DNA of 64,000 bases from Eledone cirrhosa (taxonomy: Eukaryota), in NCBI GenBank assembly GCA_964016885.1, contig OZ024745.1:25730001-25794000 (forward strand), written 5' to 3'. A program made the position numbers and the translations under genes. The notes below the pieces were generated by a model. It made no database searches and was not told the DNA's origin. It saw nothing but the letters and a program-made list of their open reading frames with translations. This document shows positions 23,281-62,664 of the stretch, in pieces; the stretch's first letter is position 1; every line of letters starts with the position of its first letter.

Positions 23281-23571
23281 ATAAAGGAAAAGAAATTGAA
23301 AATGCAACTGGAGTCTTTTAAGAATATTTATTTATTTACTCCACCGGTTTCACAGTTCTTATGATTTTCAAAAGTAAAATTGAGATGGAGGGTTTGTGGT
23401 TTTGTTGTGGTTTGTGGTTTTGTTGTATCTGAGACAAACCACAAGAAAAACACAAAAACCCTCCATTTCAATTTTACTTTTGAAAATCATAAGAACTGTG
23501 AAACCGGTGAAGTAAATAAATAGATATTCTTAAAAGATTCCAGTTGCATTTTCAATTTCTTTTCCTTGTAT
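23281..23571. mobile_element. ~290-bp palindromic PLE-like element, each arm with a degenerate U3-A8 hammerhead
   Basis: Arms of about 130 bp. tttactt-TTGAAAA-..-GAAA-ccgg-TG-aagtaaa at 23473-23516(+), mirrored at 23335-23378(-). Confidence 0.7.
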
Positions 23572-24513
23572 TATATATATATATATATATATAGAATTGT
23601 CTAAAGCTAAAATCTAATGATACACCTGACTGATACATTTATATTCTATTGTCTGCCACTAAATCTCACGAATCCAGTCAATTTCTTTTTTTAATATATT
23701 TATTTTTTTTGTATTGATTAATAATTTCTTTGTATTATATTTAATTTTGATTTTATTTTCATGATTTTATACTTTATAATCATACCATATATTAGTATAT
23801 ATATTAGTATTGAATTCTTATAAAATTCAAAATATAATCAAGTTTAACAATATTATGTTAGTTGTGAGAGCAGCTATTGTATGTATGTATGTATGTAAAG
23901 ACACGTTGATTAGTTGTTACCGTGCTCGTCTCAGGGTTGTAAGGTGGCGAATTCAATTCGCGGCGGCACGTTGTGTACTTGAGCAAGGATCAACTGGAGC
24001 ATTCGTCGTCAGAATCGACGGAGGTCCAACACGCATATGTATACACACACGCATATATGGCCAGAGGAAATTGCTTACTAAAGAATAAATGTGAAGGAAT
24101 CTGGTGGCGGTTTTGACCAATAATATCTCACTCAATGGAATCCCCTGAATTACAAGTACACCCCTATTTGAGGTCCTCCACCCTGTACAGTTTCCTCATA
24201 CGTAATTTCCTTCCGAAGGCCTCTCGCTTGACCCTATCAAACTGTAGGAGACACTTATTCAAAGTGTTGCTCAAGACCTCATGATTACTAAGCGAACTTT
24301 TTAACCACTCGACCATACCCACGCCCATAACACACACACACACACACACACACACACAAAAAGAGTACTGAGTAATTGTCATGTGACTTTTTTGAAAGAA
24401 TCCCCACCCCCGCAAAGTTCACATTTCCTTTAAAATAAATTCTTAGTGCTGATCCGTTGTTAATAGTTCACCATTAAAATCTCTCTATATAATATATGTA
24501 CACCCACTCTATA

Positions 24514-24693
24514 CGAGGGACGGTTGAAAAATTCATAGGATAACTAGAGCTGCGAAATTCTGCATGCATTAATTTCAACTCTTCGCATTAATAACTGCAT
24601 TGTTTCTTTCCAAGGACTGTTGAAAAATAAACCTCATTTAGTCATTCCGTGAGAATATCTTGGTCAGCCTATTAACTTTTCAGCCGACCCTCA
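24514..24693. mobile_element. mariner-type MITE
   Basis: TA-cgagggacggttgaaaa...ttttcagccgaccctca-TA. Confidence 0.82.
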
Positions 24694-25044
24694 TATATTT
24701 ATTTTTCAGATTGAAATGACTTCTACAAGACTAGGGCCTATTTTATTTGGTTGACATCACTCCGAATTAAATAGCAGTAATTCTGTAAAAGTCATTTCTA
24801 TTTGAAATAAATTCTATACCATCTCTATTTGGTGTATTGAGTACTCTTTAACTATTTAAATAAATTGCTTCACTTTTGTTCGAGTCTATTGAATTCAGCA
24901 TCTGTGATTGACAATATATAGGACTCAAGGGTCCAAACTAGTTGAGCTGAATTATATGGGTTTCCTCATGGGCAAATGAATAAATATAAATACACGCCGA
25001 TATATTGTATTGAATCTATTATTTTACTTCTATATCCTTGTGTA

Positions 25045-25352
25045 AAGAGTCGAATTTAATGAGGATTGGGGGGGGGGATATTACCGCGGGGCCCCTGCAG
25101 TGGAGGCCCCAGCAGCGACGGCCGAAGCAATTTATTTGTGACCTCAGCTGTGCTTTTTAGTTTTAGGATGGTTAGAAATTTTGAATTTAATACCTGTATA
25201 TCTAAATTTTCAATCACAGTATCTTGCGCCAAGCTAGTATTGATATGTACATTTTTGGATTTGCTGTGTATACTATATATATTTTTTTAGTATGAGGGCT
25301 CCCCCCAAAACCTGGAGTGCCCCGGGCGCCCTAAGGTCTGAATCCAACCTTG
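25045..25352. mobile_element. hAT MITE (CAGGGCCGGATT-type, degenerate)
   Basis: TSD cttgtgta / cttatgta. Interior shared with 42886-43182. Confidence 0.7.
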
Positions 25353-25769
25353 CTTATGTACTAATATAGATATTTAGCTCATGCCCACATATGTAGGTTT
25401 ATAGCCACCCATCATAATCTTGCTTTCTCATCTACGGACTTCACTTTTTAATCTACGAATCACTATGATCTATTAATTTCCATTTAAGTAGCCGTGTGTG
25501 TCCGAGAACCCTCATATACACACGCACTCCAAACAGGCGCGATTTATGCACTATAGCTCTCCCCTGTAGATATTAATGCGTGCACGCACGCACGCACGCA
25601 CATGCACACGCACACACACAGATTGCCTCCTCTATGTATTGATGTACACACATACACACATGCATACTCACACATCGACCACACACAAATATATTGACAA
25701 ACTGAGTTAGCAATTCGGTTTCGATCTTCAGTTAAAGCTAATTCGTTAAAACTACGTTGTTAATTGCAC

Positions 25770-60057: not shown

Positions 60058-61905
60058 GTATATATATATGTATATATATATATATATATATGTATATATA
60101 TATATATATATATATATATGTATGTATGTATGTATGTATGTATGTATATATATATATATATATGTATATATATATATATATATATATGTATATATATATA
60201 TATATATATATGTATATATATATATATATATATATGTATATATATATATATATATATATATATGTATGTATATATATATATATATGTATGTATGTATATA
60301 TATATATATATGTATGTATGTATATATATATATATATGTATGTATGTATATATATATATATGTATGTATGTATGTATATATATATATATGTATATATATA
60401 TATATATGTATATATGTATATATATATATATGTATATATATATATATGTATGTATGTATGTATGTATGTATGTATGTATATATATATATGTATGTATATA
60501 TATATATATGTATGTATGTATGTATATATATATATATGTATGTATGTATGTATGTATATATATATGTATGTATGTATGTATGTATATATATGTATGTATG
60601 TATGTATATATATATATGTATGTATGTATATATATATATATGTATGTATGTATATATATATATATGTATGTATGTATATATATATATATGTATGTATGTA
60701 TATATATATATATGTATGTATGTATGTATATATATATATATGTATGTATGTATGTATATATACATATATGTATGTATGTATGTATATATATATGTATATG
60801 TATGTATATATATATATGTATATGTATATGTATGTATGTATGTATGTATGTATATATATATGTATATGTATGTATGTATGTATGTATATATATGTATATG
60901 TATGTATGTATATATATGTATATATATATATGTATATATATGTATGTATATATATATGTATATATATGTATATATATATGTATATATATATATGTATATA
61001 TATGTATACATATGTATGTATATATATGTATATATATGTATATATATATATGTATATATATATATGTATATATATATATGTATATATATATATGTATATA
61101 TATATGTATGTATATATATGTATATATATGTATATATATATATGTATATATATGTATATATATATATGTATATATATGTATATATATATATGTATATATA
61201 TGTATATATATATATGTATATATATGTATATATATATATGTATATATATGTATATATATATATGTATATATATGTATATATATATATGTATATATATGTA
61301 TATATATATATGTATATATATGTATATATATGTATATATATATATGTATATATATGTATATATATATATGTATATATATGTATATATATATATGTATATA
61401 TATGTATATATATATATGTATATATATGTATATATATGTATATATATGTATATATATATATGTATATATGTATATATATGTATATATATATATGTATATA
61501 TATGTATATATGTATGTATATATGTATGTATATATATATATATGTATATATGTATATATATATGTATATATGTATATATATATGTATATATGTATATATA
61601 TATGTATATATGTATATATATATGTATATATATATATGTATGTATATATATGTATATGTATATATGTATATATATATGTATATATGTATGTATATATGTA
61701 TATATGTATGTATATATATATATATGTATATATGTATATATATATGTATATATGTATATATGTATATATATATGTATGTATATATATATGTATATATGTA
61801 TATATATATGTATGTATATATATATGTATATATGTATATATATATGTATATATATATATATGTATATATGTATATATATATGTATATATATATATATGTA
61901 TATAT
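60058..61905. repeat. ~1.85-kb (TA)n/(TATG)n array
   Basis: Direct inspection. It generates the 600-700 aa spurious ORFs. Confidence 0.97.
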
Positions 61906-61977
61906 AGTACATTATGAAGAGAGAAGAAACATTTAGATATAATTAGTAATAAGATGTATCATACCTAAACTGCTTCT

Positions 61978-62076
61978 AGATTCCTCGACTACGTAGTTTC
62001 GTGGCATAATCAAAAACAATACATCATAGAGATATAGAGCTTTTGTGAGGTCTGCCGACTTATCAAGAGGATACCT
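61978..62076 (-). ncRNA. type I hammerhead ribozyme, U3-A8 core variant (copy 1)
   Basis: aggtatcctc-TTGATAA-long stem II closed by G-C-GAAA-ctacgtag-TC-gaggaatct, with palindromic stem III ACTACGTAGT. Confidence 0.82.
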
Positions 62077-62565
62077 CATTTTACTAGCTTCAAAGAGTAC
62101 GTCTATAAGATGTGAGATAGAATCCCAAAAGGCGGAGGGGGAGTCAATCACGTGATACGACGGTCAAGAAACAGAGCTAAGCCCCTTATAACCCTGAAAA
62201 AAATACCACGAAGGCGGAGGGGGTATTCATATCGAGGCTGTAGAAGAGGTGGTTAAGGAGACAAGAAGTATGAGAAATGGCAGCTTTCCAGCAGTCACTA
62301 CACTTCAAGGATTACTCGACCAGGGGGAGTTATAAACAATATATTGAGAAACACACAGATACATGCGGACACATACATGAATATATCCACATCCATCCTT
62401 AGTTAATGGTGCCAACCTTAACCGATGTTGCTCTATGAATAACTGGGACAAACCAATCCGAATGGATTAGACTGAACCAGTATCAGAGCTAAAAGTACAT
62501 TATGAAGAGAGAAGAAACATTTAGATATAATTAGTAATAAGATGTATCATACCTAAACTGCTTCT

Positions 62566-62664
62566 AGATTCCTCGACTACGTAGTTTCGTGGCATAATCA
62601 AAAACAATACATCATAGAGATATAGAGCTTTTGTGAGGTCTGCCGACTTATCAAGAAGATACCT
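62566..62664 (-). ncRNA. type I hammerhead ribozyme, U3-A8 core variant (copy 2)
   Basis: As copy 1. The one difference converts a stem I C-G pair to U-G. Confidence 0.82.

Follow-up and report, generated by a model that had tools for sequence, protein, structure and literature searches.

Do the hammerhead-like cores that recur at this locus with a U3-A8 pair owe their presence to chance or decay, to a change that runs through the whole host genome, or to the elements that carry them? The window, by which the whole analysed stretch of 64,000 nt of Eledone cirrhosa DNA is meant (GCA_964016885.1, OZ024745.1 25,730,001-25,794,000; examined span 23281..62664), contains six UUGANAA cores, each with U3-A8 in place of C3-G8. 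All were present at the sites given for them in a preliminary description of this DNA: UUGAUAA at 62060-62066 and 62648-62654 (minus strand, 62-kb family), UUGANAA at 48924-48930 (minus, 48-kb family) and at 23480-23486 (plus) and 23365-23371 (minus, both 23-kb family), and an eight-letter core at 27517-27524 (minus, 27-kb family) in which one extra base follows A6 (A6a). The architecture proposed there was likewise recovered: each core leads into stem II, GAAA and a stem III that is palindromic or paired, with stem I closing the whole. These six cores represent four insertions: those at 23 kb sit in opposite arms of an inverted pair, and those at 62 kb in one partial tandem.

The four families had been called unrelated in sequence, and the best DNA match between any of them (E 0.03 in a tiny database) was at chance level. 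All four have the core N3-UGA-N7-N8-A9 and the GAAA segment, positions 3 and 8 forming a Watson-Crick pair. The centroid structures of the 62-kb and 48-kb motifs showed the hammerhead three-way junction with three helices and stem I open, at an unexceptional fold stability (z -1.8 and z -1.5, respectively); the three-helix fold of the 23-kb and 27-kb motifs was seen at the family level and was weak in the window copies. The 62-kb and 48-kb motifs have GUC as their predicted NUH cleavage triplet; the 23-kb and 27-kb families have GUA or GUU instead. The description of the 23-kb and 27-kb examples as degenerate was borne out by G17 and U10.1-U11.1 in the former and by decayed stems I and III in the latter. 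Structurally, each of the six counts as a type I hammerhead fold, for which self-cleavage is predicted.

The 62-kb insertion (61906..62834, minus) consists of a 589-nt non-coding unit (61906-62494), a 5'-truncated tandem copy (62494-62759) and an inverted piece (62761-62834), and terminates in a long TA microsatellite. Its type I motif at 61978..62076 (minus) has a long stem II and an 8-nt palindromic stem III, with a predicted cut after C at 61987; the second copy, at 62566..62664 (minus, core 62648-62654), lies 588 nt from the first. In the dimer of both hammerheads the minimum-energy co-fold is the double hammerhead, in which stems I and III form between the copies. Genome-wide, a first look gave 2,768 candidates of this family, of which the best 40 places were 92-100% identical, and U-A occupied the core pair in 46 of 47 aligned copies. 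Tandem pieces were found at 26 of 30 loci, inverted pieces at 20 of 30 and a TA run directly behind the main unit at 13 of 30. No ORF was found inside the common upstream 500-600 nt of either the 62-kb or the 23-kb family, and both appear to be non-autonomous or truncated. Its units are non-coding, stand in tandem and carry one type I hammerhead each, and its copies are also permuted and longer than one unit; in these points the 62-kb family resembles the metazoan non-LTR retrozymes, for which mobilization by Penelope enzymes has been proposed (Cervera and De la Pena, 2020; PMC7229834). It differs from those described in the accessible text of that study in its U3-A8 core and in the size of its unit (588 nt vs ~170-400 nt); abundant circular RNA in tissue is a further mark of retrozymes.

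The 23-kb family is represented by a right arm (23430..23572, plus), with a minimal hammerhead at 23473-23516 and a CCGG stem III, and a left arm (23284..23415, minus) that is 94% identical to it. Both window copies have G17 and most of the family has A17; the U10.1-U11.1 mismatch is family-wide, and U-A was found in 40 of 41 aligned copies. The subfamily reached about 2,000 candidates with a two-pair stem II, which suggests that an active ribozyme may be dispensable for amplification. The 27-kb copy (27455..27536, minus) is a short, decayed 3' end that combines the U3-A8 core with A6a; U3 and A8 were present in 32 of 33 aligned rows of its family. A weak link to an ORF is given by a 63-residue match in L112 (E 9e-6) and by the sister L321. 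A link to the adjacent Hydra ORF in L097 was rejected, as that ORF family has its own C3-G8 motif.

At 48 kb, the insertion at 48829..49426 (minus) comprises the 5'-truncated 3' end of a Hydra-clade Penelope-like element (48829-49340) and an inverted piece that starts at 49343 and holds only the 3' half of the hammerhead. The type I motif (48840..48935, minus; predicted cut after C at 48845) has a stable stem III with which monomer folding is possible, and it has U-A in 36 of 37 aligned copies. The insertion is 88% identical over 547 nt to the region 3' of a Hydra-type ORF at locus L040, and an unbroken run from the end of such an ORF to the hammerhead, in sense orientation, was found at 11 of 30 loci of the family. 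These ORF ends match the L264 ORF at 35-43%. Pfam assigned no family to the Hydra-type ORFs; read from its sequence, the L264 ORF has RWK-type and DKT motifs and no N-terminal GxKF. The earlier suggestion that the carriers are Penelope-like elements or retrozymes was thus upheld: they are Penelope-like or retrozyme-like elements, with the 48-kb family behind Hydra-type ORFs.

Matches arising by chance, or canonical hammerheads decaying one copy at a time, had to be considered, since the genome is AT-rich and the window copies at 23 kb and 27 kb are decayed. The strict pattern, which requires G10.1-C11.1, C15.2 and a short stem II, matched 29,891 U-A sites in the whole genome (1,099 in the reversed control) and 14,519 C-G sites (501), whereas the single-change states gave 627 for U-G (control 475) and, by subtraction, 701 for C-A (control 647). 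The four purine-3/pyrimidine-8 states together gave 1,393 genome-wide against 1,597 in the control, and under this one pattern no G3-C8 or A3-U8 family rose above control. A structure search of tiles returned 16 U3-A8 motifs vs about one in shuffled tiles. In the comparison that had been proposed as a refutation, U-A was thus more than 40-fold ahead of the single mismatches and also above the shuffled background. The excess of U-A over U-G, C-A and control shows that the pair is genuinely compensatory and that decay is not its source, and the view that the double change is hard to ascribe to random decay holds, as U-A is fixed by family and the single mismatches are near background. With a 27-fold excess over the reversed control, chance and decay are refuted by the counts, and we give them practically no weight.

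A host that had moved its Penelope and retrozyme hammerheads as a lineage to an AU-rich core, as the preliminary description supposed, would agree with the twofold predominance of U-A in the strict pattern and with its occurrence in two Penelope clades and, on the tiles, no fewer than six families. However, the strict pattern is biased toward one family, which accounts for 64 of the first 100 U-A matches listed, and the 2:1 excess (29,891 vs 14,519) was rejected as a genome share by the tile counts. In 1.19 Mb of evenly spaced tiles the structure search found 99 C3-G8 and 16 U3-A8 motifs, a U3-A8 share of 14% (95% CI 9-21%), or about one in seven, and C3-G8 was the commoner state by family as well (19 vs 6). 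A first descriptor, which overlooked 3-bp stems I, had given 57 C-G and 12 U-A at score 12; the second still overlooks a few of the weaker copies in the 23-kb parent family (6 descriptor matches on tiles, where the pattern gave 10), and with these included the share rises to ~17%. Dependence of U-A on G10.1-C11.1 plus C15.2 was not supported on the tiles (4 of 6 vs 7 of 19 families, p 0.35). Nor was the supposed AU-rich trend seen, the remainder of the motif having the same mean GC on tiles with either core (0.375 vs 0.377). C3-G8 is the state of the youngest autonomous family observed, whose ORFs are 775 aa long and whose copies are 100% identical, and the variant has been published at a higher share in Schistosoma, with ~1,300 U3-A8 vs ~2,000 minimal motifs (~39%; PMC4209133); here an estimated 40,000 copies make up ~14%. 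A lineage-wide shift is largely refuted by these observations and is very improbable.

The under-counting of ribozymes that was expected to follow from such a shift is real, yet it is not due to the U3-A8 core alone. Rfam at the gathering score returned no hammerhead in 86 kb or in 140 kb and missed canonical motifs too, the 140 kb holding 40 C-G and 9 U-A descriptor matches. At E up to 10 it gave no hammerhead on 61910-62790, and none in the window scan among the 150 of 518 matches listed, which were mostly microRNA models on TA repeats. A descriptor limited to CUGANGA would lose about 9-21% of the type I motifs in this genome, an estimated 40,000.

Further carriers bear on how often the variant arose. 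Two more U-A families lie behind Hydra-type ORF ends (L175, L208, L303, L319), and one lies behind a Neptune-type RT/GIY-YIG ORF (L307, common to L308), an ORF with 47% identity to a C-G family. For L143, the Neptune-type reference, Pfam found GIY-YIG, with RVT_1 just below the cut-off. Judged from these sequences, the presence of U3-A8 in both Hydra-clade and Neptune-type Penelope elements is new. Homologous sister families differ in the pair, which is likewise new: L320-L327 have C-G vs U-A in the 27-kb family, both with the A6a insertion, and L312/313 have C-G vs U-A in L306/310. Between sister families the stems covary and the 3-8 pair is kept. Also new is one family in which a U3-G8 wobble form has been amplified. 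A single clade of all U-A Hydra ORFs was rejected (p-AU 0.028) in a tree of short fragments with long branches, in which L112 fills 24% of the columns and published Hydra proteins were left out. The sequences suggest that U3-A8 likely arose several times and not in one genome-wide shift.

We consider it highly probable that the window holds four Penelope-like families with 3' type I hammerheads in which a tolerated U3-A8 pair has arisen repeatedly and spread with its master copies, and that no host-wide shift took place. The hammerhead at the 3' end of each family would cut the element RNA, probably as a dimer where stem III is a short palindrome. The cut would free a unit-length RNA (588 nt in the 62-kb family), possibly circularized, and Penelope reverse transcriptase with GIY-YIG endonuclease would copy it back, mostly into TA repeats. 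U3-A8 retains a Watson-Crick geometry like that of C3-G8, and the base at position 8 works via its 2'-OH (PMC2920678), so that the swap would be tolerated. From C-G to U-A two transitions (C to U and G to A) would lead through a U-G wobble, a path that would explain why only U-A is found and not G-C or A-U. The change likely arose in several separate masters and spread along with them, and its copy number would mirror a few successful families. Less in line with this reading are the unexceptional fold stabilities, the missing ORF link of the 62-kb and 23-kb families, the spread of the 23-kb subfamily with its short stem II, and the low in vitro cleavage of minimal Penelope hammerheads (PMC4209133).

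The pair could instead mark masters in which cleavage matters little, the motifs being weakened or silent passengers of amplifying elements. U-A does occur alongside features that weaken the ribozyme, namely U10.1-U11.1 in the 23-kb subfamily, A6a and, where the U-G form occurs, a family with a 2-bp stem I; Naiad elements are described as spreading without canonical hammerheads (PMC8557442). Relaxed selection, however, should fix mismatches as often as pairs, whereas C-A, G-C and A-U are at background; the 3-8 pair is conserved while the stems covary between sister families, and, apart from the pair, the 48-kb and 62-kb motifs are intact. Silent motifs are in our view unlikely. The pair may have switched back and forth more than once between C-G and U-A by way of a U-G wobble, with the wobble form fit enough to be amplified in its own right, an idea that we put forward tentatively and with some doubt. 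If it is true, one genome offers a natural compensatory series (C-G, U-G and U-A, with and without A6a) in matched sister families, from which the cost of each 3-8 state would be directly measurable. The sister families and the U-G form provide ready natural constructs for asking whether the spread of an element depends on cleavage by its Penelope hammerhead, and how, in a catalytic core, a compensatory change gets past the intermediate state.

The U3-A8 variant itself is already published, so the surprise is small. Natural U3-A8 was reported by Perreault et al. (2011; PMC3088659), who describe such covariants as active in vitro and also list the A6a insertion (of low activity) and the U10.1-U11.1 mismatch, which completes the three oddities of the window. 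Their variants are rare and, in the accessible part of the report, not described in combination; here U3-A8 and A6a are fixed together in one repeat family. The same covariation occurs in the Cercyon Penelope-like elements of Schistosoma mansoni (Cervera and De la Pena, 2014; PMC4209133), where a type I motif with palindromic stem III likewise lies in the terminal repeats, copies are mostly single and truncated, with close opposite-strand pairs, and C3-G8 motifs share the genome. In contrast to Cercyon, the carriers here are Hydra-clade and Neptune-type, and a full stem III or a long stem II is present in several of the motifs. For octopus or cephalopod genomes no survey of 3-8 states was found in the accessible literature. 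The Hydra clade (Craig et al., 2021; PMC8557442) shares with our elements the RW(R/K) and DKT motifs, a C-terminal nuclease region, insertion into TA repeats and a 3' hammerhead. All 26 Hydra rows of its File S2 are C3-G8, with CUGANGA-centred descriptors, whereas three Hydra-type lineages are U3-A8 here.

Canonical hammerheads also occur in the window: five CUGAUGA cores, missed in the preliminary description, start at 22954, 35290, 37310, 37438 and 39218. Two form an inverted pair at 37210..37560 (cores 37310, minus, and 37438, plus), whose family is found elsewhere about 1 kb behind Hydra-type ORF ends. The others are a C3-G8 hammerhead at 35225..35300 (minus, core from 35290), a weaker-scoring hammerhead-like C3-G8 motif at 39205..39285 (plus, core from 39218) and, directly outside the examined span, a decayed C3-G8 hammerhead at 22945..23000 (plus, core from 22954).

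When the window sequence was checked, all six hammerhead cores with a U3-A8 pair that the preliminary description had listed were present, starting at 62060, 62648, 48924, 23480, 23365 and 27517. The two copies of the 62-kb motif are spaced by 588 nt; these and the 48-kb motif are each predicted to fold as a complete type I hammerhead, with GUC as the cleavage triplet. The 23-kb cores are the two arms of a single inverted insertion. Their family carries A17 and a U10.1-U11.1 mismatch, whereas both window copies have G17 instead. Hammerhead activity is reported to fall 8- to 100-fold with G17, fully stabilised motifs included (PMC3884650), so that the 23-kb window copies are likely to be near silent as ribozymes. 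The 27-kb core has eight letters, and its variable position places one inserted base after A6 (A6a); this register is confirmed by a sister family with the identical insertion but C3-G8. No DNA similarity above chance was detected among the 23-kb, 27-kb, 48-kb and 62-kb families, which agrees with their earlier description as sequence-unrelated. Five canonical cores that had not been described also occur in the window.

U3-A8 is a fixed state in these families and not a product of decay. The U-A pair was found in 46/47, 36/37 and 40/41 aligned motifs from across the genome, copies that lean to the subfamily of the window because they were drawn from the 30 best-matching loci per search, with a few window copies counted in two overlapping loci. 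A single pattern run on the whole genome matched U-A 29,891 times (1,099 in the reversed control), but the pattern is biased, and 64 of the first 100 U-A matches listed belong to the parent of the 23-kb family (hand count). C-G was matched 14,519 times (control 501), U-G 627 times (475) and C-A, by subtraction, 701 times (647). The purine-3/pyrimidine-8 states combined showed no excess in this search (1,393 versus 1,597); most of those listed come from a large irregular tandem array at 8.01-8.52 Mb of another contig, G000:C1, and are without stem II pairing. The comparison with single mismatches and background proposed in the preliminary description thus came out in favour of U3-A8, U-A lying far above U-G, C-A and the control. 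The sole 3-8 swap seen is the one reachable by two transitions.

Homologous sister families differ at both 3 and 8 in three places. In the A6a lineage C3-G8 (loci L320-L327 elsewhere in the genome) stands against U3-A8 (the 27-kb family, window 27455-27536), and the palindromic stems III of both forms covary. The second pair is L312/313 versus L306/310. The third is a U-A element (L307 and L308), with the hammerhead 1.1 kb behind the ORF, that is 47% identical to a C-G family with 775-aa RT/GIY-YIG ORFs; we take it to be of Neptune type from the motifs GLKF, DKG and the Cys linker, in part after PMC8557442. A tree built from 13 rows of Hydra-type ORF ends placed the fragment of the 27-kb family together with C-G families (98/99), and one single U-A clade was rejected (p-AU 0.028). 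This suggests, with moderate support given the short fragments and long branches, that U3-A8 arose repeatedly.

The 48-kb family corresponds to the 3' end of a Penelope element of Hydra type: 11/30 loci continue unbroken from the ORF end to the hammerhead about 570-710 nt downstream, and the window copy matches the region downstream of a Hydra-type ORF at 88% over 547 nt. Short matches to the 3' tail of its hammerhead, some in inverted pairs, lie at 33959-34046, 38402-38457 and 43671-43716. Other Hydra-type lineages have U-A (L175, L208, L303, L319) or C-G (L264, L132, L300, L194, L321). Many intact 758-aa ORFs occur in the Hydra-type families at L243-L269. Pfam assigned no family to the related L097 fragment or to other Hydra-type fragments, and a search of the 64-kb window for ORFs gave no Penelope ORF. 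The youngest autonomous family met, of Neptune type (L143 and L270-L299), has C3-G8 and identical 775-aa RT/GIY-YIG ORFs in 4.2-kb tandems; with 67 scored matches at 100% identity, most of which have the 775-aa frame open, it is possibly still active. The unit of the 62-kb family is 588 nt long and non-coding; it is tandem in 26/30 and inverted in 20/30 loci, with permuted copies of more than unit length, and two of its motifs are predicted to co-fold as a double hammerhead. This shape is as expected if the family, like a retrozyme, is a passenger mobilised by Penelope enzymes. Within the upstream 500-600 nt shared by their copies, neither the 62-kb nor the 23-kb family could be linked to an ORF. 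Typical retrozyme arrays, long and tandem, are found at G000:C1:5,738,331-5,752,439 (466-nt period, C3-G8) and at L305 (316-nt period, U3-A8).

Beside the observed folds, fixation, position and insertion shape of the U-A motifs we propose a mechanism in which the cut following position 17, made in dimers if stem III is palindromic, would leave element RNA of unit length, which the Penelope RT and endonuclease would put back into the genome. With U-A the 3-8 pair retains its geometry; position 8 is reported to work through its 2'-OH (PMC2920678).

Among the first 100 matches listed for each state, one family (L331-L345, on G000:C1 from 24.8 to 400.9 Mb) provided 15 for U3-G8, 6 for U-A and none for C-G, compared with 7 U-G and 64 U-A for the 23-kb parent (Fisher p 8e-8, from hand counts of copies that are not independent). 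The excess is about 25 times the level from copy decay in another family. Together with a loop change common to 7/15 U-G copies and seen in none of the U-A matches listed, this indicates that a U-G master was very probably amplified, possibly as an intermediate or a back-step. A forward intermediate is made less likely by the tree, in which the U-G copies do not resolve as a clade, and by the U-A state of the sister family, which points rather to a back-step from U-A. Moreover, stem I in this family has only two pairs and then a mismatch, so that this ribozyme may be weak anyway. Of these findings, the wobble form and the sister-family series merit experimental study.

The share of U3-A8 was estimated from 119 evenly spaced 10-kb tiles with a structure descriptor that allowed any of the 16 combinations at positions 3 and 8. 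At score 28 these gave 99 C-G, 16 U-A, 4 A-G, 3 U-G and 1 C-A, with about 1 or below for each of these states in shuffled tiles. U-A thus accounts for 16/115 or 14% (Wilson interval 9-21%, for copies that are not fully independent), and scaling to the 3.0-Gb genome gives roughly 40,000 U-A and 250,000 C-G motifs. C-G prevails by family as well (19 versus 6), the GC content of both motifs is equal and the youngest autonomous family is C3-G8; the lineage-specific shift to an AU-rich core advanced earlier is therefore not borne out. Standard searches had also been expected to under-count such ribozymes. Rfam indeed reported no hammerheads in 140 kb containing 9 U-A and 40 C-G descriptor matches, nor in two further scans, but as the C-G motifs were missed equally, it is blind to this hammerhead architecture and not to the U3-A8 core.

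The U3-A8 motif is real and explained. Natural U3-A8, A6a and U10.1-U11.1 already appear in Perreault 2011 (PMC3088659), and about 1,300 U3-A8 motifs are reported for Schistosoma Penelope elements (Cervera and De la Pena, 2014, PMC4209133); in File S2 of Craig 2021 (PMC8557442) 26/26 Hydra rows are C3-G8.

TA microsatellites are abundant in this genome. At 673-785 an inverted repeat with a short tandem piece flanks a TA run and contains GAAA adjoining a variant core-like word that did not reach a hammerhead assignment. A 31-nt satellite of 127 copies with 95% matches occupies 10865-14902, and an open frame with two C2H2-like zinc-finger motifs, presumably the end of a LINE-type element, lies at 40322-40550.
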